A stretch of DNA of 64,000 nt, taken from NCBI GenBank assembly GCA_038087875.1, contig CM075996.1:560001-624000 (forward strand), given 5' to 3'. Positions 2,996 through 49,817 of the stretch are shown piece by piece (positions within the stretch are counted from its first letter, which is position 1; each line of letters opens with the position of its first letter). The notes below the pieces were generated by a model. That model saw only the letters and a program-made list of their open reading frames with translations. It made no database searches and was not told where the DNA came from. The stretch is from Malacoraja senta (lineage: Eukaryota). The translations under genes were made by a program, and so were the position numbers.

Positions 2996-4816
2996 CTAAA
3001 GGAGAGAGTTGAACAATGATGTTAAAAAGACATACAATACACACAATTTAGTGGAATATGGTTAAATAAAAAATACTGGGGGAAACACAGCAGGATAGGC
3101 AGCATCAGTGGAAAGAAAAACCTTATGTTAACAGTGCATAATTCTTCATCACAGACGGTACGGTGGCGCAGTTGCTGCCAGGGACCCGGGTTCGATCCTG
3201 ACTACGGGTGCTTGCCTATACGGAGTTTGTACGTTCTCCCCGTGACCTACATGGGGTTTTTCCGAGATCTTGGGTTTCCTCCCAAACGCCAAAGATGTAG
3301 TTTGTTGGTTAATTGGTATAAATGAAAAAATTGTTCCTAGTATATGTACGATAGTGTTAATATGTGGAGATCGCTGGTCGGCGCAGACCCGGTGGGCCAA
3401 AGGGCCTGTTTCCATGCTATATAACTAAACTAAACTAAAAATCAGAAACTTTGGCAAAGGATTCTAGATCTGAAAAATTAACTATTGATCTTTCCACAGA
3501 TGCTGCCGGACGTAATGTTTCCAACATTCTTGATTTATATTTCGGATTTCCAGCATGTGTATTTTTTTCTGTATACTGAAATATGGTAGAATATGACTGT
3601 ACCAGTAATCCAGAAGTTGCTATTAATAATCCAATTTAAATCTCAGTAAACTAGACTTTCCTCTCAGCAGTTCACCACTTGATTCGTCTGCGCACTTCAT
3701 GGCGAACTTAATTTTTGTAGACCTTTGTCCCGCTTGTCCTAACATTGACAGTTTGATTGATTGAAAGATACAACATGAAAACAGGCCTTTCGGTCCACTG
3801 AGTCCACACACACTATCAATCACCCGTTCAGACTAAATGTAGAAACAAAGAACTGCAGGTGCCGATTTATACCAAAGAGAGACACAAGGTGCTGGAATAA
3901 CTCAACGGGTCAGGCAGCATCTCTAGTGGAAAAGGATGAGTGACCTTTCGGGTTGGGACCCTTCTTCAGTCCCGACCCGAAACATCACCCATCCTTTTTC
4001 ACCAGAGATGCTGCCTGACCCGCCGAGTTACTCCAGCACTTTGTGTCTACCTGTTCACTAGTTCTACGTTATCTTACTTTCACTCCATTTCTTACACACA
4101 CACAATGAGCAATTTACAGAAGCCAACTCATCTACAAACCGGCACGCCTTTTGGACGTGGGAGAAAATTGGAGCATCCAGTAAAAAGTCACAGGAAGAAC
4201 GTGCAAACTCCACACAGACATCTCCCCAGGTCAGGTTTCTGATGCAGTGAGGCAGTGCCTCTACTAAATGGAGAGGTATGAAAAGGTTCAGAACAAATCA
4301 GAGCCTATTTAAATACAATTCTGTTTCTTAGGAGGCACAGGGAAGGTTCCTATTGTACTGAGGTCAACAGGTCCTCTCTGCAATCATCATTAAAGGAAAA
4401 ATAAAATACACAAAGTGATGGAGGAACTCAGTGGGTCAGGCAGCATCTCTGGAGACCAGGACCTGACTGATGAAGGGAGGAAGAAAGCTGGATGAGAGGT
4501 GGAAGAAAACCAAACCTAGATAGTATTTGGTTGATACAGGTGTGGGGAAGGAAAGAAGGGTTCCGACCCAAAAATCATATATCTCCATTAAACTTTGTCC
4601 CCCTCTCACATTATAGCTATACCCTCTAGTGTCCCGCTGAGTTACTCCAACATTTTGTTGATTTATGAATTATGATTTCAGGAGATCCCGGTCAGCAGTG
4701 AGAGGCTTGGACATGTCTTGGCGAGGCAGCAGGCGCTACACAAACGCAGCTTCACTCAGTCTGAAGAAGGGTCTCGACCCGAAATGTCCCCCATTCCTTC
4801 TCTCCAGAGATGCTGC

Positions 4817-4870
4817 GGGGTGGAAGATTGCAACCTTCACGTGGTCCGCCCTGTTTCGACAAATGCAATC
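4817..4870 (+). ncRNA. Minimal HDV-like self-cleaving ribozyme (predicted)
   Basis: P1 GGGGUGG/CCGCCCU with G1-U wobble; J1/2 AA; P2 GAUUGCA/UGCAAUC; P3 ACC/GGU; L3 UUCACGU; P1.1 G; P4 U-UUCG-A; J4/2 CAAA. Confidence 0.8.
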
Positions 4871-4964
4871 AACCTGCCGTGCACAATCGAATAAGATCAA
4901 ATAGAACAAGTTGTCCTACAACTTTAGGCTGTGCACGCCATACGCAAGAAGAAGAAGAAGAAGA
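4817..4964 (+). mobile_element. Short non-autonomous retroelement with 5' HDV-like ribozyme and (GAA)n tail, copy 1
   Basis: Flanked by 11-bp TSD agagatgctgc (4806-4816 and 4965-4975); ends in (gaa)n; the first 54 nt fold as an HDV-like double pseudoknot. Confidence 0.85.
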
Positions 4965-5014
4965 AGAGATGCTGCCTGTCCCACTGAGTTACTCCAGATT
5001 TGTGTGTCTATCTT

Positions 5015-5068
5015 GGGGTGGAAGATTGCAACCTTCACGTGGTCTGCCCTGTTTCGACTAATGCAATC
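5015..5068 (+). ncRNA. Minimal HDV-like self-cleaving ribozyme (predicted)
   Basis: Same fold as copy 1; P1 3' strand CUGCCCU (G-C changed to G-U); J4/2 CUAA. Confidence 0.8.
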
Positions 5069-5148
5069 AACTCGACGTGCACAAACGGAAGATCAAATAG
5101 AACAAGTTGTCCAACAACTTTAGCTGTGCACGCCACACGAAAGAAGAA
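5015..5148 (+). mobile_element. Short non-autonomous retroelement with 5' HDV-like ribozyme and (GAA)n tail, copy 2
   Basis: Flanked by a different 11-bp TSD gtgtctatctt (5004-5014 and 5149-5159); same body as copy 1 with several substitutions. Confidence 0.85.
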
Positions 5149-5348
5149 GTGTCTATCTTCATCATCAATGGACCACAGTGGGCTCCACTTTTCTTTGATC
5201 GGTGCCAGCTCTGATTTGTTCTGAACCTTTTCATACCTCTCCAGAGATGCTGCCTGACCCGCTGAGTTACTCCAGCACTTTGTGTCTATCTTCGGTTGAA
5301 ACCAGCATCTGCAGTTACCTTCCTGCACATTCCGTTCACTCAACTTAC

Positions 5349-5382
5349 CGGCCAGGAGGCATTTGGCGCGCAGTTTCACCAT
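5349..5382 (-). CDS. IFT27: IFT27 coding exon 1
   Basis: ATG GTG AAA CTG CGC GCC AAA TGC CTC CTG GCC G|gtaagt = MVKLRAKCLLA(G), cf. human MVKLAAKCILAG. Confidence 0.93.
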
Positions 5383-5389
5383 GCCTGCC

Positions 5390-5700
5390 ACTGGTAGCGG
5401 ATTCCCGGCTCGCTAGCCGGTTATCTTGATCAACGCAAACCCAACATTGAAAAATTATGATCGCAATTTATCAATAAGCTGCTCTTCCAAACCTCCCCAG
5501 CTCCGCTTCAGGCCTCCAATGCGGCCTTGGTTACCGCTCCCCCGGCAACCGCCGAACCCGCCCCTTCTCCAGATATCCCGCCCACAATCCTCCTTCTCAT
5601 TGGTCACCACCCGTGTCGCTCATATTCCCCGCCGTTTAATTGGCTTATAGCCTGTCATTCAAACTATTCGCACCGCCCCTACTTCCTCTGGTCCTGGAGA
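5390..5700 (-). promoter_or_regulatory. IFT27 CpG-rich promoter
   Basis: CpG-rich unique sequence directly upstream of exon 1 with GC boxes (cccgccc), two CCAAT boxes (attgg near 5599 and 5639), an ETS-like acttcc and an X-box-like gctcccccggcaac (5536-5549). Confidence 0.65.
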
Positions 5701-9654: not shown

Positions 9655-17069
<7,415 letters not shown>

Positions 17070-22241: not shown

Positions 22242-24865
22242 TTACTGCACCAGAGATTCAGGTTCGATCCTGGCTGCGGGTGCTGTGTGTACGAACTTTG
22301 TACGTTCTCCCCGTGACCGTGTGAGTTTTCTCCGGGTGCTCCGGTTTCCTCCCACACTCCAAAGACGTCCAGGTTTAAATGGACTTTGATCTGGACTCCA
22401 GATTTTTGAAATTTTGCTCAAAATAAATTGAGGACGTTAAAAGCTTTTCTTTAAAGACAGTAGTTATGATCTGGAGGAAAAAGGAACCGCAGATGCTGAT
22501 TTGCAACAAAAAAGACACAAGGTGCTGGAGTATGTCAGCAGGTTAGGCAGAGTCCCTGAAGAACATGGATAAGATGACGTGCCGGGTCGAGACCCTTCTT
22601 CAGACCTGGTATTTACTGCCTGCGGTGGAGATAGAATCAAGCGGGATCTTTCAAAAGAGACACAAGATGCTGGAGTAACTCAGTGGGTCAGGCAGCATTT
22701 CTGCAGGAAAGGAATGGGTGATGTTTTGGGTTGGAACCATTATTCAGACTGAGAGTCAGGAGGGAGGGAAACTAGAGGTATGGAAAGGTTCAGAACAAAT
22801 CAGAGCTGGCTCCGATGATCGAGGAAAGGTGGAGCCCACAATGGTCCATTGTTGATGAAGATAGACACAAAATGCTGGAGAAACTCAGCGGGACAGGCAG
22901 CATCTCTGGATAGAAGGAATGGGTGACGTTTTGGGTCGAGACCCTTCTGGCCAGTCTAGCAACCAACAAGGTTGCTCTACAAAGCGCTGGCACGAACACA
23001 AGGGGGCCTAGTGGTCTCTTCCCGTAGAGTAACAATACTATCATTCCACAATTTCCCCCATTAAATGCTTTCTCCCCACCATTTATAAACACTGATAAGA
23101 CTGTTCCACAACCTGCATGGAACATGGAGCGTAGAACAGTACTGCCTAGGAACAAGCCATGGGGCCCACAATGTCAGTGTCAAACATGATGCCAAAATAA
23201 ATTAATCTCATCTGCCTGCACATGATCCATATCCTTCCATTCCCTGCTTACCCTCGAAAACTGAGAGAAAGAAGCTGCATCTCTTCCTGATTACCATAGC
23301 CCTCTACAACGCTAATCATTCTACTAAGCACAATCTAGCCCTGCAGAAACTCAGTATTTGGAACAGGCGGCACATTGGCGCAGTGGGTAGAGCCGCTGCC
23401 TCACAGCACCAGAGACCCGGGTTCGATCCTGACCTTGGGTACTGTTTGTGTGGAGTTTGCATGTTCTTCCTGTGACCGCATGGATTTCCTCCTGGTGCTC
23501 TGGTTTCCTCCCACATTCCCAAAGACATGCAGGTTTGTAGGTTAAGTGGCCTCTGTAAATTGCCACTAGTGTGTAGGGAGTGGATGAGAAAGTGGGTGAA
23601 TGTAGAACTAGCATGCAAAGCGACACAAAGTGTTTGCTCATGGTCCTGTGAATATTATGCTTCAAGTGGACGGCATGGTGGCACAACGGTAGAGTTGCTG
23701 CCTCACAGCACCAGAGACCCCGGGTTTGATCCTGACATTGGGTACTATCTGTGTGTTGTGCACACGTTCTCCCTGTGACCACGTGGGTTTCTTCCTGGTG
23801 CCGCAGTTTCCTCCCACATCCCAAAGGTGTGCAGGTTTGTGCGTTAATTGACCTCTGCAGATTGCCCCTAGTGTGCAGGGAGTGGATGAGAAAGTGGGAT
23901 GACTTAGAAATAGCGTGAAAAAAGACACAAAGTGCTGGAGTAACTCAGTTGGTCAAGCTGCATCTCTGGAGAACGCGGATAGGTGACGTTTCGGGACTCA
24001 AAACGCCACCTATCCATGCTGCATCTTTCGTTCAACATCTCTGGTGCCCATGGATAGGTGACTTTGGAGACGTTAATCCATGTTCTCCAGAGACGCTGCC
24101 TGACCTGCTGAGTTACTCCAGCACTTTGTGTCTTTTTGTGCATTAACCGGCATCTGCAGCTCTTTGTTTCCACGTAGAACTAATGTGAAAGGGTGATCGG
24201 TGGCCGTCGTGAACTCGACGGGTCGAAGACCCCCCCTTTCCATGCCGTGCCTTTCGATCGAAGACCCGAAATCTGTCTCGGCAACCTGACGGATTTGAGG
24301 CCGTGGTAATCTCACCCTCTTCAATTACAGCCTCTTCCCTCAGGCTTCAAGGAGCGATCTGGCTGATAAAACAGGCACATAAATTAATATATGTGTATAT
24401 CACTGGAGGAGGCCGAATCATTGAAGCAGCTCAGATTAATGGCTGCGTCTATAGATTTCAATTTAACTCCCTGCTGCTCCAAGGGCCTCGTTCAATGCTT
24501 GCGGCCAGTTCCATTCTGATGTTGCTTCCGCACATGGAAATATTAAATCAACCATAGCATACATCAAGGCTCAATGTTCATGAAGCTTTTAAATTAGATT
24601 AACTTCTCCTTTAAAGATTTTGTTCACCTAACGACAATTTCTCGTTAAGTGTTATCTAGGACAATCCAAAAATGTTTCGTTACAGAAAGACACAAAATGC
24701 CGGAGTAACTCAGCGGGTCCGGCAGCATCTCTGGAGGAAAGGAATAGGGGACGTTTCGTCCCCTATTCCTTTTCTCCAGAGAGGCTGCCTGATCCACTGA
24801 GTTACTCTGGCATTTTGTGTCTATCTTCAGTGTAAACCAGCATCTGCTGCTCCTTCCTACACAAT

Positions 24866-33817: not shown

Positions 33818-36610
33818 ATTTTTCCTAGTTCTGACAGAATATCACCTAGAAGAAGTATTAGCTCTGCCCCTCTCTCCAGGGGTACTGTTCGACCGGAAGA
33901 GGATCCCCAACATTTTATGCCTTTTGTGGCTGCTTGTCCTCATGTATTTTAGTTTAGTGACACAGCGTGGAAACAGGCCTTACGGCCCACCGAGTCCGTG
34001 CCGACCAGTGATCACCCCGTACACTAGCACTGTCCTACACGCTAGTGACAATTTACAGACGCCAATTAGCCTACAAACCGGCGCATTTTTAGGGTGTGGG
34101 AGGAAACCGGAGCGCCTGGAGAAAACCCACAGGGTCGCAGGGAGAACGTGCAAACTCCTTACAGACAGCACCTGTAGTCAGGATCGAACCCGGGTCTCTG
34201 CCGCTGTCGAGGCGGCAACTCTACCGGTTGTGCCAACGTGCCGCCCTTCTGGAGCAGGTATGAAACCCGTGACCTTCTGACTCACTGCTGTCTCCAGGGA
34301 GTTGTCGATGAAGTCTCACTGACTTCATTCAAGGTTGGGATCAATAGGTTTTTGGAGTCTATGAGATTCAAAGGATAAGTGAAATATCCAGGCAGAGGAG
34401 TAGGCATAATCTTGTTGAAAAGCAGAGCTTGCTCAGCCCATGTGGCCAGCCGACATCTGCTGCTGTTTTACTGTGGAATTCTTTGCGTCTTTGTGCTCCC
34501 CCCTCCCCCCTCCATCCCGTGGTCCCCCCCACTCAGGGTCCTCCATGTTCTATACACCCCCCCACAGCGCCCCCCCCCCCCCCACACAGGGTCCTACTTT
34601 CTTCCTTCCCTCGGCAGTGGTGTCCTCACTCCACGTGGTCCATCCTCGTCTGTCTCAAGATGGCTATCGGATCGTGGGACGCTCGGAATGGAGGCGACGG
34701 CTACAACGGGCCCTCGTGGGACTGTAAAATGGCTTCAAAATGGCACCTCTTGCATATGGGCTCAGTGGGCTGTTGTGTACGTTCTATACCAACCGGGGGG
34801 ATTGTACTCATGTATGGTGATAGTCTTGTTGAGCTGTGAGGAAAAAATGTATTTCATTGTACCTGGTAAACGTGATAATAAAGAACCCATTGTTCTTTAT
34901 CTCTCTACATCATCGTCTATATCTCCCGTTTCCCTTATCCCTAACCAGCCTGAAGGTCTCGACCGAAACGTCACCCATTCCTTCTCTCCAAAGATGCTGC
35001 CTGTCCCGCTGAGTTACTCCAGCATTTTGTGTTATTTCTACTCCAGCAATAGGATTACTGGAGTAGAAATAAAGAACTGCAGTTGCTGGCTTATGCCAAA
35101 GGTAGACACAAAGTGCTGGAGTAACTCAACGGGCCAGGCAGAGTTTCTGGAGAACATGGACAGGTGACAAGTCTGTGGAATTCTCTGCCTCAGAGGGCGG
35201 TGGAGGCCGGTTCTCTGGATGCTTTCAAGAGAGAGCTAGATAGGGCTCTTAAAAATAGCGGAGTCAGGGGATATGGGGAGAAGGCAGGAACGGGGTACTG
35301 ATTGGGGATGATCAGCCATGATCACATTGAATGGCGGTGCTGGCTCGAAGGGCCAAATGTCCCTTCGAGCCAGCACTGCTTCAACTATTGTCTATTGTCT
35401 ATTGTTGACATTTCAGATCCCCAACTAAGAAGGGACCCGACCCGAAATGACACCCATCCTTTTTCTCCAAAGATGCTGCCTGACCCGCTGAGTTACTCCA
35501 GCACTTTATGACTTGGGTTAGCGTAGGTTTAGTTTAATTTAGAGATACAGCATGGAAACGGGCTCTTCAGCCCACCAGGTCCACGTCGACCATCGATCAC
35601 CCGTCCACACTAGTTCTATTATATCCCACTTTCTCATCCACTCCCTACACATTAGAGGCAGTTTACAGAGGCCAATTGGCCTACAAACCCGCACATCTTT
35701 GGGATAAGGGGGGAAACCGGATCACTAGGAGAAAACCCACGCGGTCGCAGAGAGAACGTGCAAACTCCACACGGACAGCACCCGAGGTCAGGATCAAACC
35801 CTGGGTCTCCGGCGCCGTGAGGCAGCGGCCCTACCAGTTGCGCCAATGCGCTACCCTAAAGGATTAGGAAATAGTATTCAATGGGCTGAAAGGCCTGTTT
35901 CCATGTGTAGGAAGGAACTGCAGATGCTGGTTTAAACCGAAGATAGACACAAAAAGCTGGGGTAACTCAGCGGGACAGGCAGCATCTCTGGAGAGAAGGA
36001 TTGGGTGACGTACTGGGTCAAGACCCTTCTTCAGACTGGTTAGGGATAAGGGAAATGAGAGATAGAGACGATGATGGCCTGTTTCCATGCTGTACCGCTC
36101 TCTATTGCTCTGACTTTAAAAATGAAATCAGTTTTAAATTAGTCCAGAGGGGATAGTGAGGCAGATGATCATGTAGAGACAGCATTAGAACAAATGGATT
36201 TTGACATGATATTTAGCCAAGTCACAATTAAAACTCCATCCACATGAAGATATGCTCGCGCTACCAATCAAGCCAATTCCCGGCAGAAATATAATTATTA
36301 TATCACCATTCATCATTGTTATTTGGAAAGTCACATTCACCTAACCCTGAGATCGCACCTTCAGGAGCACCGAACACATGGTTTGGTTTGGGATATTCTT
36401 GACTTTCACTTGACTGTTGAACAGGGAGTGCTGTTGTTTTATTAATGAGGAAACCAAATAAGATTCAATTATAGATTGAGTAAGAGTGCAAGGAATGAAG
36501 GGAGATTAAAGAAACATCTCCACCAGCAGGAACTGGCTGGGAATTGATCTGTAAACACTTAAGTGCGCAAAAGGTTTTCGTATGAAAGGCACTGTACAGC
36601 TTCCAGTATG

Positions 36611-36831
36611 TTGGAAGGAACTGCAGATGTGTAGGGAGATACTGCAGATGTGTAGGGAGGAACTGCAGATGTGTAGGGAGGAACTGCAGATGTGTAGGGA
36701 GGAACTGCAGATGTGTAGGGAGGAACTGCAGATGTGTAGCGAGGAACTGCAGATGTGTCGGAAGGGATTGCAGATGTGTCAGAAGGAACTGCAGATGTGT
36801 AGGGAGGAACTGCAGATGTGTAGGGAGGAAC
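36611..36831. repeat. 21-bp minisatellite, about 10 copies
   Basis: Tandem unit tgtagggaggaactgcagatg, derived from the end of the abundant aggaaggaactgcagatgctgg repeat. Confidence 0.9.
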
Positions 36832-37587
36832 TAGAGTCATAGAGTGATACAGTGTGGAAACAGGTCCTTCAGCCCAACTTGCCCGCACCGGCCAACATGT
36901 CCCAGCTACACAAGTCCCCCCTGTCTGCATTTGGTCCATTTCATCCAAACTTGTCCTGCAGATGTGCAGGAAGGAACTGCAGATGATAGTTTACAGCGAA
37001 GATAGACACAAAATGCTGGAGTAACTCAGCGGGACGGGCAGCATCTCTGGAGAGAAGGGATAGGTGACGTTCTGGGTCGAGACCATTTCTTCAGACTGAA
37101 GGTTCTTCACACCTTTGTACCCCTCCACGCCCATCTCAATGTGTTTTGGGCCCGCAATGACATAAATATTTTCTTCCATCGTCTCCGTGCCTTTTTCTAT
37201 GAGAAGGAGTCCTCACCACCCAGTGATGACCCCTTCTTCCGTCTCCAACAGGTCCGCCTCCTGAAGGACTTCTGAAGAAGGTTCTCGACCTGAAACGTCA
37301 CCCATTCCTCCTCTCCAGAGATGCTGCCCGACCCGCTGAGTCACACAAGGAACTGCAGATGCTGGTTTATACCAAAGATTGACACAAAACGCTTGAGTAA
37401 CGCAGAGGGTCAGGCAGCATCTCTGGAGATTTATTTAGAAAAAAGGTCTAGAGAGGGTAGAAGACCGTCTGGAGGAGGGGGGGGGGGGTGGGGGACGTTA
37501 GAGATGGGAGAAAAGGGTGATAACTGTGTGGTGAGGACTTCTCATAGAAAAAGACACAGAGGTGGAGTTGACGGAGAAAAGCTCTAC

Positions 37588-45758: not shown

Positions 45759-45830
<72 letters not shown>
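45759..45830. repeat. (TA)n microsatellite in an AT-rich domain
   Basis: Pure TA run inside the ~2.4-kb very AT-rich block 44800-47200. Confidence 0.95.
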
Positions 45831-45838
<8 letters not shown>

Positions 45839-46300
45839 ATATAATTATATTAACAAATATATTAATATTTGTATATATATAATACTCTATATATACATAC
45901 ATTTAATTGTTAGATAACACAATATATGTATTAATAATTATATATATAATACAATGATATAATTATTGTTAATATGAATATATATGTACATATAACATTG
46001 TATTAAAAAATATGTTAATATTTATATCCATATATAATACAATGCATAATACAATTTTTTTAAATACTAGATAATAATATATTTATCAATAGTTATATAT
46101 AGTACAATGACATAATTATTGTTAATATTATTACATTAATGTATATATAACATTATATAAATAAATATATTAATATATCTGTACATACAGTATATAATAT
46201 ATCTGTAAATATAGTATAATATAGCTATAAATATATATCTGTAAATATAGTATAATAAAGTATCATTCATATAATAAAATATATATAACACCATATATAT

Positions 46301-46506
46301 CAGGGGTTCCCAACTTTTTTTGTCCCGTCTACCCCTGCAACTTTAATAGCACATAACAATGTTACTTTACTTATTTATGGACAACTAATGATGAACAGAT
46401 ACCAGAACCAAACACAGTCAGTCAATGAGAAAAAATATGTACAAATCCGGAATCAACAAATTTACCCCCTGGGTAGGCAAAATTTACCCCAGGTTGGGAA
46501 CCGTTG
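46301..46506. mobile_element. hAT-family MITE
   Basis: TIRs caggggttcccaac and gttgggaaccgttg with an 8-bp TSD atatatat. Confidence 0.8.
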
Positions 46507-47329
46507 ATATATATATAATACAATATATATATATATTTAAATACTAGATAATAGCACCATATATTTATTAATAATTATGTATAATACAATAGTATGATTA
46601 TATTAATAATTATATTAATAATCATACCATTGTATTATATATATTTATTAATAGATATAAAACAATTGTAAAATTATTAATAAATTAATAGCATTTATTA
46701 ATAAATATATATTGCATTATGGTATAAATGGTATAATTATTATTATAATAGAATATAAATTCACATATAACAATATATAGAATACTGTATATATAATACA
46801 ATGTATATAGCAATTCCTTCCCTCACATATATATTTAAATACTAGATAATAACACCATATATTTATTCATATTTATATAACATACAAGGCTATAATTATA
46901 TTAATAATTAATATTAATATTTCAATACTAGATAATAATACAATATATTAATATAATTATACAAGAGTCAAGTCAAGAGTGTTTTATTGTCATATGCCCC
47001 AGATAGGACAATGACATTCTTACTTGCTGCAGTACAACAGAATATGTAAACATAGTTCATAACGGGAGAATATAGATATTTCAATACTAGATAATAACAC
47101 ATTATATTAATATAATTATACCATTGTATTATATTAATATTACCATTGTATTAATATAATATTAATAATATAATATGATATATTTATGTCATACGAAATA
47201 TGAACAATGAGGGTAATTTGCTTCTAAAATATCTTGCAATTAAAGGTTTATATTGTTGCAATGGAATTATTTTTGCATGGATTATTTTGCATTTGCATTA
47301 TTGTGGATTTGTTGCCCCCCCTGCATCCA

Positions 47330-47634: not shown

Positions 47635-49817
47635 GTGAGTGAGTGAGTGAGTGAATGAGGGGAGGGAGGTTTAGGAGAGAGAAAGGGGGGAGGGGGGAGG
47701 TTAAATTAAGATGGGGAAGAGATTGGATTAAATCAGGTTGGTTGAAGGCTGTGGGAGGTGGGGAATTCAGATCAGCCTGGGAGGAGGACGGTGGGTGACA
47801 TCAGACACACAGGCCAGGGGTTAAACCAGACTAGATTGTGGGCAGAGGGGTGGATGCAGGTGAGGTGGCTGGGGAAATTGGGAAGGGTGTTAACACAGGC
47901 TGGGCTGTGACAGTGGGGATTAATGCAGGGTTAGGGTCTAGGAGGGATTAATGCAGGGTCAGGGTCAGGGTCAAGGAGAGGGGTTGATGCAGGGGTCAGG
48001 GTCAGGGTCAAGGAGAGGGGTTGATGCAGGGGTCAGGGTCAGGGTCAAGGCGAGGGGTTGATGCAAGGGTCAGGGTGCAGGGGAGGGGGTTAATAAGGTT
48101 AGAGTGTAGGAGAGGGTTTCATTCAGTTCGGGGGTACGAGAGGGCTTAATTCAGGTGAGGTAGCTGGGGAAATGGTTTGTGGGCAAGGGTGTTAAGGATA
48201 GGCTGTTGGAGAGGGGGTTGATATAGGGTTGGGATATAGGAGGGGTTAATGCAGGGTTCAGCTGTGGGAGAGGGGGAACTGCAGGGGTTGGGTGCAGGAG
48301 AGGGGTTGTTGCAGGGGTGGGGAGTAAGAGAGGGGTTAATGCAGGGTTAGGGGATGGGAGAGGGGCTATGGATGGGTCAGTTGTCGGAGAAGGGGTTATT
48401 CCAGGGTAGGTTGTTCGTGAGGGGTAGGCTGTTGGAGAGGGGCTTCATGTGAAAGAGAGAGTTAACGTGAGTAGCTTGTGGGAGAGGAGTTCATTTGGGG
48501 TGGATTCTTAAAGAAGGGGGTTATTGCAAGGCAAGATATGGGAGAGCGGTTAATGAGGGATTGGTTGTTGGAGAGAGGGTTAATGAAGGATGAGAGGGTG
48601 GTGAATCTGGAATTCATTGCCACGGACAGCTGTGGAGTCCAAGTCATTGGGTATTTTTAAGGCGGAGGTTGACAAAGATTCTTGATCAGTACGGGTGTCA
48701 GGGGTTATGGGGAGAAGGCAGTAGAATGGGGTTGAGGGGGAAAGATACATCAGCGGTGATTGAATGGCGGAGTAGACTTAATGGGCCAAATGGACTAATT
48801 CTGCTCCTATGACTTGTGAAATGATAGGGTTGTGAGAGGGGAGGTTAATAGGTTGTAGGAGTGGGGATAATACAGGGGTGGGTTGTAGGTGAGGATATTT
48901 AGTGTGAGGTAGATTGTGGGAGGGGGAGGGGGGGGTTAAGGCAGGGGTAGGCTGTGAATGGGGGATTACCAGGGGCCAGGCCTGTGGGACAAGTTGGAGG
49001 TTAACGTGGTAATGAGTGGGGGAGGGAGAGGGGTTAATGTAGGGAATGGGCAAGAGGGGGGGGGAAGGGGTGGTTAGTAAAGACTGCCTGAGGGGGGGGG
49101 GTGTAGTTGAATGAGACAGCAAGCAGTGGTTAAGGTGTCTGCGTGGGGGAATTTAAATGAGTTTGACTGGTGGGGAGGGGAGCCCCTGTGCATTGGGCAG
49201 CCCAGACAAGGAGGGGGTCAGGGGAACGGCAGCTTGTTGAAGGGCGAGTTCGTCCTGTTTACGAACGAGTGCTGGGTTTGCCAGATAGTGAGAGGAGAGG
49301 GCCAATGTCACCTCACCGTGAATGCAGATAAGACGCCAGTTTGACAGGGAGTTGTGTAAAATGTCCTGATAATTTGGTGTTCTGTGTTAATTAAGAATCA
49401 GTACACGCCTGGCGTGCCTCCCCCCCCACGCTGCTAATGTGTGGTATACACCACGGCAATCTGCTGGATTGCAATTAACACAGTTTGTTGACCTTGTTTG
49501 TACAACATGGAACGTAGAACAGTACAGCACAGGAACAGGCCCTTTAGCCCTCTTCTCCTACTAAACACGATGGCAAATTAACCTGATCTCTTCCACCAGT
49601 ACATGAACTGTATCCCAGTGCATGTCCGTGCCTAGCTAAAAAGGCTCCTAAACACCACTGTCGTATTTGCTACCACCACCACCCTACACTGTCAGCCCAT
49701 AGAAACATAGAAACATAGAAACATAGAAAATAGGTGCAGGAGGTGGCCATTCGGCCCTTTGAGCCTGCACCACCATTCATTGTGATCATGGCTGATCGTC
49801 CCCAATCAATAACCCTT

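Follow-up and report, generated by a model that had tools for sequence, protein, structure and literature searches.

What sets the 5′ end of a short retroelement that carries no recognisable promoter? The question is raised by a stretch of Malacoraja senta DNA of 64,000 nucleotides (assembly GCA_038087875.1, contig CM075996.1, forward strand, positions 560,001 to 624,000; hereafter the window), which holds between 4817 and 5148 two short related elements, copies A and B. The initial annotation had read them as a promoter-less retroelement headed by a self-cleaving ribozyme like that of hepatitis delta virus (HDV), ending in (GAA)n and mobilised by the reverse transcriptase (RT) of an RTE-type long interspersed nuclear element (LINE). 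We analysed both copies, their relatives in the genome and the published systems that they resemble. Self-trimming by a ribozyme, combined with retrotransposition supplied by a LINE, would probably explain this family of elements of 135-148 nt (134 nt for copy B), and the 54-nt head of the element is the part on which this explanation turns.

Two insertions in one older repeat

Reading the sequence over 4600-5400 placed copy A at 4817-4964 and copy B at 5015-5148, both on the + strand. Copy A is flanked by the 11-bp target-site duplication AGAGATGCTGC at 4806-4816 and 4965-4975, whose uninterrupted counterpart in another copy of the host repeat lies at 5237-5253 (repeat family D8). Copy B is flanked by GTGTCTATCTT at 5004-5014 (repeat family D6) and at 5149-5159, and a contig from the public run X23 skips 5010-5154. 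Both copies were inserted into a single copy of an older repeat, of which an insertion-free paralogue at 5237-5301 (+ strand; D2, 59 nt, 85%; D8, 17/17) serves as the empty site for comparison. Excising each element together with one copy of its duplication makes the host repeat collinear again with this paralogue. The repeat scan aligns A and B in three blocks (92% over 73 nt, 97% over 35 nt and 93% over 27 nt), and the two copies come from two subfamilies of one family. The reading of the locus as two independent insertions, each with its own 11-bp duplication, is thus borne out, as is the absence of a coding sequence: no open reading frame (ORF) of 20 or more amino acids lies wholly inside copy A or copy B.

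The elements appear to be built from three modules, namely a 54-nt head, a hairpin body of about 80 nt and a (GAA)n tail. In copy A the body (4871-4945, + strand, inverted repeat I1) pairs an outer stem, CGUGCACA with UGUGCACG, around an inner 7-bp hairpin, AAGUUGU with ACAACUU, and the fold of 4871-4963, which covers the body and most of the tail, has an energy of -17.5 kcal/mol (z -1.79). The body of copy B (5069-5139, + strand) has the same architecture, and with its tail (5069-5148) folds at -14.6 kcal/mol (z -1.08). The body stands directly before the tail, where a hairpin recognised by a stringent LINE enzyme would usually be found, and it is the presumed RT-recruitment module. The (GAA)n endings described earlier are present in both copies: Tandem Repeats Finder (TRF) reports AAG x7.3 at 4946-4967 in copy A, where the tail, (GAA)n/(AAG)n, spans 4946-4964 (+ strand) with an uncertainty of 2-3 nt where it meets the duplication, and copy B ends in the short tail AAAGAAGAA at 5140-5148 (+ strand). 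No other (GAA)n array was found in the window.

The host repeat occupies 4553-4816, 4964-5014 and 5149-5301, with a core of the form ...CTCTCCAGAGATGCTGCCTGACCCGCTGAGTTACTCCAGC...GTGTCTATCTTCGG, and is present as three partial copies within 800 bp (families D2, D3, D7 and D8). Its motif also occurs in the flanks of several relatives of the element fetched from the genome (for example L032, L039 and L077), which indicates that the host repeat is itself a high-copy family.

A probable minimal HDV-like ribozyme at the head

In both copies the first 54 nt (4817-4870 in A and 5015-5068 in B, + strand) fit an HDV-like double pseudoknot that lacks P4, with its parts in the order P1-P2-P3-L3-P3′-P1′-J1/4-J4/2-P2′. 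P1 pairs residues 1-7 (GGGGUGG) with 30-36 (CCGCCCU or CUGCCCU) over 7 bp and is closed by G1·U36, P2 pairs 10-16 (GAUUGCA) with 48-54 over 7 bp, and P3 pairs 17-19 (ACC) with 27-29 over 3 bp. L3 reads UUCACGU, and G37 can pair with C22 as P1.1; this is a single Watson-Crick pair, the second being a would-be U·U. Ahead of P2′, J4/2 reads C44-N-A-A. Copy A has P1 at 4817-4823/4846-4852, P2 at 4826-4832/4864-4870, P3 at 4833-4835/4843-4845 and L3 at 4836-4842, with its predicted cut 5′ of 4817; copy B takes up the same fold with U31 (G6·U31) and U45. Every helix named in the initial annotation is therefore present, together with L3 and the putative catalytic C (C44), which lies at 4860 in A and at 5058 in B (+ strand), exactly where it had been placed. 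The "vestigial UUCG-capped P4" of that account was overstated. Between J1/4 and C44 there is only UUUCGA (residues 38-43), in which no more than a single U-A pair can enclose UUCG; the ribozyme is effectively without P4.

The landmarks expected of a catalytic centre (G1·U36, U20, G25, C22-G37 and C44-N-A-A) are intact and at least 90% conserved. Within J4/2, C44 and A47 are each conserved at 90% or more, A46 is invariant and position 45 varies freely. Among 47 distinct sequences, pair 1-36 is GU in 36, AU in 4 and unpaired in 7, and pair 22-37 is CG in 46 and UG in 1. The head also has counterparts in published ribozymes. Over 11 positions, the core CCUUCACGUGG shows 2 differences from the R2 consensus CCUCCUCGUGG (PMC5035012), and L3 is identical to a heptamer in a primer for the mouse CPEB3 ribozyme (PMC10274809). 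Minimal delta-like ribozymes without P4 have been described (PMC10879173), and R2 ribozymes of silkmoths also lack it; the one tested, that of S. cynthia, self-cleaved (PMC3774820). The head thus probably folds as a minimal HDV-like (delta) ribozyme, with cleavage predicted 5′ of G1.

When 4700-5300 was scanned with Rfam at E values up to 10, the sole ribozyme matches were to HDV-F-prausnitzii (RF02682), on 4817-4870 and 5015-5068. Both are aligned end to end (model positions 1-74), and C44 falls on the J4/2 C of the model. A descriptor search for HDV-like folds, proposed with the initial annotation and run by us over the window, hit both heads with the start on the first base of the element, plus one weak, GU-rich site at 49232-49376. 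The descriptor has a chance rate of about 2e-6 per position, to be set against a match that starts exactly on base 1 as the duplications define it. Across 89 aligned heads, 95.6% of cells can pair in register versus 26-43% when the partner strand is slid. In other runs, head variants reaching 10% or more occur only at positions 31 (C/U), 32 (G/A) and 45 (the N of J4/2), and all are compatible with pairing. The additional site at 49232-49376 (145 nt, GU-rich P1, 6-bp P2) satisfies the loose descriptor and is at chance level (0.29 per window).

A large and young family with a fixed 5′ end

Relatives were sought in the assembly from which the window comes (1.94 Gb in 6,182 contigs). Copy A as query gave 1,072 first-look candidates, and the 40 that were scored are all 96-98% identical to it; the match starts on the first query base in 37 of these and on the second in 3. 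With copy B there were 2,271 candidates, and all 40 scored, one of which is the query itself, span positions 1-134 at 99-100% identity. Since such top lists favour full-length copies, exact 16-mer counts were added as a second measure: a head 16-mer occurs 6,960 times in the assembly (reversed control, 2) and a body 16-mer 6,528 times (reversed control, 0). The near equality of these counts shows that there is no excess of 3′-only fragments. The family thus numbers some 7,000 copies or more, is very young, judging from the identity between them, and appears to be currently or very recently active.

A recognisable duplication flanks 54 of 60 copies, abutting G1 directly in 52 and with a 1-nt offset in 2. 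This agrees with the earlier observation that the element starts exactly at G1, and the heterogeneous 5′ ends that would have spoken against it were not seen. In the same 54 copies the tail has a median length of 11 nt (range 5-42). The 39 exact duplications (loci L001-L059) are 9-20 bp long, with modes at 11-12, and around their start the target shows T at -2 (25 of 39), a pyrimidine at -1 (34), A at +1 (31) and G at +2 (21). The resulting consensus, TY|AG, agrees with priming of a (GAA)n RNA on the nicked target, and the match of the leading AG of the duplication to the tail suggests microhomology priming.

Between the two subfamilies, the head is about 3-4 times more conserved than the body. 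Of the 54 head positions only 2 distinguish A from B, whereas their bodies, some 80 nt long, are set apart by about 9 substitutions as well as 2 indels.

Search for an internal promoter and for a partner LINE

ARAGORN found no transfer RNA (tRNA) gene in 4500-5500, and Rfam gave no similarity to tRNA, 5S, 7SL or small nuclear RNA (snRNA) in 4700-5300 at E up to 10. Sequences weakly resembling the A and B boxes of an RNA polymerase III (Pol III) promoter are present at positions 5 and 37, a typical distance apart. The best match to either box consensus departs from it at 3 positions, the commonest outcome among 500 shuffles; the absence of Pol III boxes noted at the outset is thus upheld. Neither a small-RNA-derived head nor internal A and B boxes, the marks of a short interspersed nuclear element (SINE) in the strict sense, is apparent in the sequence.

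A LINE sharing the head or the 3′ part of the element was sought with five genome patterns in which a family segment stands beside non-family bases. They gave 3, 2, 86, 2 and 5 hits and no such LINE. Loci were inspected for the 3-hit pattern and for 30 of the 86 hits, and all were indel-bearing or truncated family copies; the other patterns were judged from the match sequences. The remaining 56 of the 86, judged from the 9 nt after the head, show no recurrent downstream sequence except in a few pairs, two of which were confirmed as duplicated loci (L078/L079 and L085/L086). The patterns with 3, 2 and 5 hits, which bear on sharing of the 3′ end, gave no recurrent non-family neighbour. When both copies were compared by blastn with the window and 94 fetched loci (about 350 kb), one extra old copy was found (L044:3030) and no fragments, and non-family arrays of (GAA)4 or longer number only 2 in 357 kb, neither resembling a LINE end.

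We also searched the genome for the RT domain PF00078, with 150 of 159,857 candidates listed. An RT-bearing ORF of 1271 amino acids occurs at more than 10 places among the matches listed and is followed about 300 nt downstream by an A10 run (L096, G000:C2:44047300-44050300). A second RT family has an ORF of 1039 amino acids with an L1-like Cys-rich C-terminus, and (TTGTG)3 (L097, G000:C395:62947-65146). These two most prominent intact RT families in the sample are L1-like, with A-rich or (TTGTG) rather than (GAA)n ends, and no RTE element of this genome was recovered. Rex3 has a tail of (GAA)2 followed by GATG/GATC repeats, not (GAA)n (PMC6274825). The RTE-type partner proposed earlier is not supported by the published Rex3 tail or by the two RT families sampled, and an autonomous LINE with the same head and tail did not appear in the five pattern searches. 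At pattern-level identity, the searches showed no resident element that shares the head or the 3′ part; a short internally deleted element (SIDE) of a LINE would share both with a resident autonomous element. The genome holds many intact copies of L1-like LINEs.

Contigs from public sequencing runs

Contigs of four public runs were aligned to 4985-5175 at 85% likeness or more, giving 10,169 contigs in X23, 814 in X2, 82 in X7 and 3 in X8. All 24 runs considered, these four among them, consist of assembled contigs, whose ends do not show RNA ends. The family is present in runs filed under at least four organism or metagenome codes. Loose ends that lead into unrelated flanks concentrate at 5013-5015 (63+176+208 in X23, 29+29 in X2 and 3+7+4 in X7). 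The X23 contig that skips 5010-5154 omits 145 nt, the sum of the element (134 nt) and its duplication (11 nt). No other contig covers the unique flank 5167-5175, and the shorter side of the joint in this contig is only 21 nt. As it joins across copy B and one duplication, copy B is absent at this site in that sample. X8 is the only run on record as RNA, the RNA label of X7 being a guess; family contigs in X8 show presence in an RNA library and are not evidence of transcription.

One contig each in X8 and X2 (the latter at depth 737) contains a joint from 5082 to 5015, that is, the first 68 nt followed by a full element from G1. Possible readings are a variant with a duplicated head, one element inserted into another, and a join made at the repeat during assembly.

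Self-cleavage and alternative explanations

How would a ribozyme at the head account for these observations? A copy lying in any transcribed region would be carried along in the host read-through transcript, and the ribozyme would cut directly 5′ of G1, as its fold and position suggest, to leave an exact 5′ end. A LINE reverse transcriptase acting in trans would recognise the 3′ hairpin, the (GAA)n tail or both, and priming on the nicked TY|AG target would proceed by target-primed reverse transcription, as the duplications and the target consensus suggest. The cDNA would then run to the cleaved 5′ end, so that every new copy would start at G1 with an intact ribozyme.

A number of results weigh against this explanation. 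The RF02682 matches score 14.4 bits (copy A) and 14.2 bits (copy B), far below the gathering score of 44, with E values of about 5, and at the gathering threshold Rfam returns no ribozyme match in the window. By itself the descriptor would match thousands of times by chance in 1.9 Gb: 150 dinucleotide shuffles gave on average 0.29 loose and 0.07 strict matches per window over both strands, so the fold alone is not rare genome-wide. Covariation, a check suggested with the initial annotation, is absent, as none of 18 pairs is changed on both sides among the 89 heads and the shuffle control is not exceeded; the heads are 96% identical on average and the best family copies 96-99% identical, a family too young for this test to have power. 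The one-sided changes C31U and G32A are ordinary products of CpG decay. A genome pattern with a fixed P3-L3 core and a different P1 gave 23 hits, of which 20 are deleted family copies and 3 apparently random, and thus no relatives with a differing P1. The nested minimum free energy of the head is unremarkable (z 0.12, pseudoknots being outside the model). A uniform 5′ end is equally expected from a fixed transcription start, and no partner LINE was found in the searches made. Finally, some contigs bridge the G1 junction into upstream flanks, those of X8 (1 loose end, at 5014) and X7 (14) included, which means that cleavage, if real, is incomplete, or that these contigs derive from DNA or pre-mRNA.

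Part of this evidence fits an ordinary SINE in which transcription begins at G1 from a Pol III or snRNA-type promoter that has escaped recognition; the head would then descend from some unknown small RNA, and its HDV-like fold would be inactive or a coincidence. Uniform 5′ ends and full-length copies are expected of any such SINE, the weak boxes at 5 and 37 have the right spacing, and the lack of covariation, the sub-threshold Rfam scores and the junction-bridging contigs in RNA-labelled runs all point the same way. However, the boxes match no better than shuffles, no small-RNA relative was detected by ARAGORN or Rfam, and a coincidental fold would have to begin exactly at base 1, share its L3 with CPEB3 and much of its core with R2, and sit in the head, which is better conserved between subfamilies than the body. 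We thus regard a promoter-driven SINE as rather unlikely. The element might instead be a SIDE of a resident autonomous LINE with the same ribozyme head and 3′ end, in which case the head was inherited and is not a stand-alone SINE module. R2 SIDEs and NARTc originated by this route (PMC3414825; PMC3383444), and the element does look as if head, 3′ hairpin and tail had been joined directly to one another; but the inspected hits of the boundary patterns were family copies, about 250 kb of sampled genome contained no partial matches, and head and body are counted nearly equally often, although exact patterns would miss a LINE whose ribozyme and tail had diverged. Such an origin seems to us unlikely.

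A ribozyme-derived structure could also have been kept for another job, with cleavage slow or lost, for instance binding of a partner protein like the R2 5′ pseudoknot or service as an internal DNA-level promoter like Pr77 of L1Tc. Both dual roles are documented (PMC6765202; PMC3383444), and the junction-bridging contigs and the one Watson-Crick pair of P1.1 (C22-G37) are in line with slow or lost cleavage. Against this, all catalytic landmarks are intact, and a 5′ end fixed at the predicted scissile bond is most simply a consequence of cleavage, which makes a head retained for another function very improbable. Self-trimming by the ribozyme, with retrotransposition by a LINE enzyme, remains the explanation that we favour.

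Relation to known ribozyme-bearing elements

HDV-like ribozymes have already been reported in metazoan LINEs and in non-autonomous SINEs (PMC6765202), so that the novelty first attached to the element was overstated in this respect; our literature searches found no description of a ribozyme-headed short retroelement family in cartilaginous fishes. As ribozyme-headed non-autonomous retroelements such as R2 SIDEs and NARTc are known, the kind of element is not new, whereas the family is new and unusually abundant. What is notable in it is its abundance, its youth, the 54-nt head without P4 and the lack of a detectable parent LINE.

The closest parallels are the R2 SIDEs and R2/R1 hybrid SIDEs of Drosophila (Eickbush & Eickbush 2012, PMC3414825), short non-autonomous non-LTR (lacking long terminal repeats) elements that combine a 5′ HDV-like ribozyme with a LINE-type 3′ end and, in the hybrids, join the ribozyme head to the 3′ end of another LINE. 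According to the same source they rely on co-transcription and self-cleavage, not on Pol III, as we propose here. The core is again nearly matched, an R2 primer reading CCTCCTCGTGGT and the present element CCTTCACGTGGT. R2 SIDEs are, in that account, confined to 28S ribosomal DNA (rDNA) sites, present at low copy number and traceable to a parent R2 or R1, whereas the present family is dispersed genome-wide in about 7,000 copies, its 54-nt head lacks P4, it ends in (GAA)n, and no parent or partner LINE was detected. L1Tc, NARTc and other Pr77-bearing elements of trypanosomatids (PMC3185411, PMC3383444, PMC4035085) also carry an HDV-like ribozyme in the first nucleotides of dispersed elements, some of them non-autonomous, and it frees the element RNA from co-transcripts. 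These are elements of protists, however, whose head, 77 nt long, also serves as a promoter, and NARTc is a truncated L1Tc that shares LINE sequence; for the present family no shared LINE was found.

In architecture the head resembles the minimal HDV-like and theta ribozymes (PMC10879173) and the silkmoth R2 ribozymes (PMC3774820), which form a double pseudoknot without the P4 domain; the minimal and theta ribozymes are also similarly small. In vitro self-cleavage has been shown for theta ribozymes (PMC10879173) and for the R2 ribozyme of S. cynthia, whose J1/2 loop is large (PMC3774820). The former, as reported, come from metagenomes and phages and lie beside tRNAs, and the latter belong to the rDNA-specific R2, whereas the present head is part of a dispersed short retroelement in a large eukaryotic genome. 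Short, abundant, non-autonomous elements with a self-cleaving ribozyme are also known as the SINE-like elements of Schistosoma (hammerhead Sm-alpha; twister variants, PMC8501958). Their ribozymes belong to other classes, and Sm-alpha is described as transcribed by Pol III, with a ribozyme that resolves multimers (PMC6765202).

The L3 heptamer is common to the head and the mouse CPEB3 primer. The CPEB3 ribozyme differs in being single-copy and intronic, with a full P4 and other P1, P2 and P3 sequences, and its Rfam model has no match in 4700-5300 at E up to 10. The GU that follows P1 probably matches in CPEB3 as well. Given the same L3 heptamer, one might imagine a free-living ribozyme-SINE in which a CPEB3-type 54-nt ribozyme is the only 5′-end device of an active, promoter-less element of about 7,000 copies without sequence kinship to its LINE helper, and of which the like formed the stock for exapted single-copy vertebrate ribozymes such as CPEB3; this idea is speculative and in our view quite improbable.

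If the head cleaves, a very abundant and very young family would be amplifying without a promoter of its own, by means of read-through and a 54-nt ribozyme. Minimal ribozymes without P4, whose origin and function are described as still open (PMC10879173), would then have a clear job in a eukaryote. The family would offer thousands of natural variants of one ribozyme for mapping of activity and a tractable system for the selection of a (GAA)n-tailed template by a LINE enzyme. Its copies would also be potential RNA-cleavage sites within host transcripts, which is of relevance to annotation.

Other features of the window

The only Rfam matches above threshold in the window are a tRNA gene at 63010-63082 (- strand, 67.4 bits) and a snoU83B-like C/D-box small nucleolar RNA (snoRNA) at 12265-12355 (- strand, 45.8 bits, the gathering score being 35). 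At 23386-23934, a tandem array of 1.8 copies of a 302-bp unit (83% matches) contains a tRNA-like box-B motif, GGTTCGATCC, and probably represents a tRNA-derived SINE present twice side by side. The remaining repeats are a 21-nt minisatellite of 10.7 copies at 36609-36832, a strongly AT-rich block at 45760-47300 that is full of AT-rich tandem arrays (GC content 0.33 for 44-48 kb), and G-rich tandem repeats of 30-90 nt at 47926-48406.

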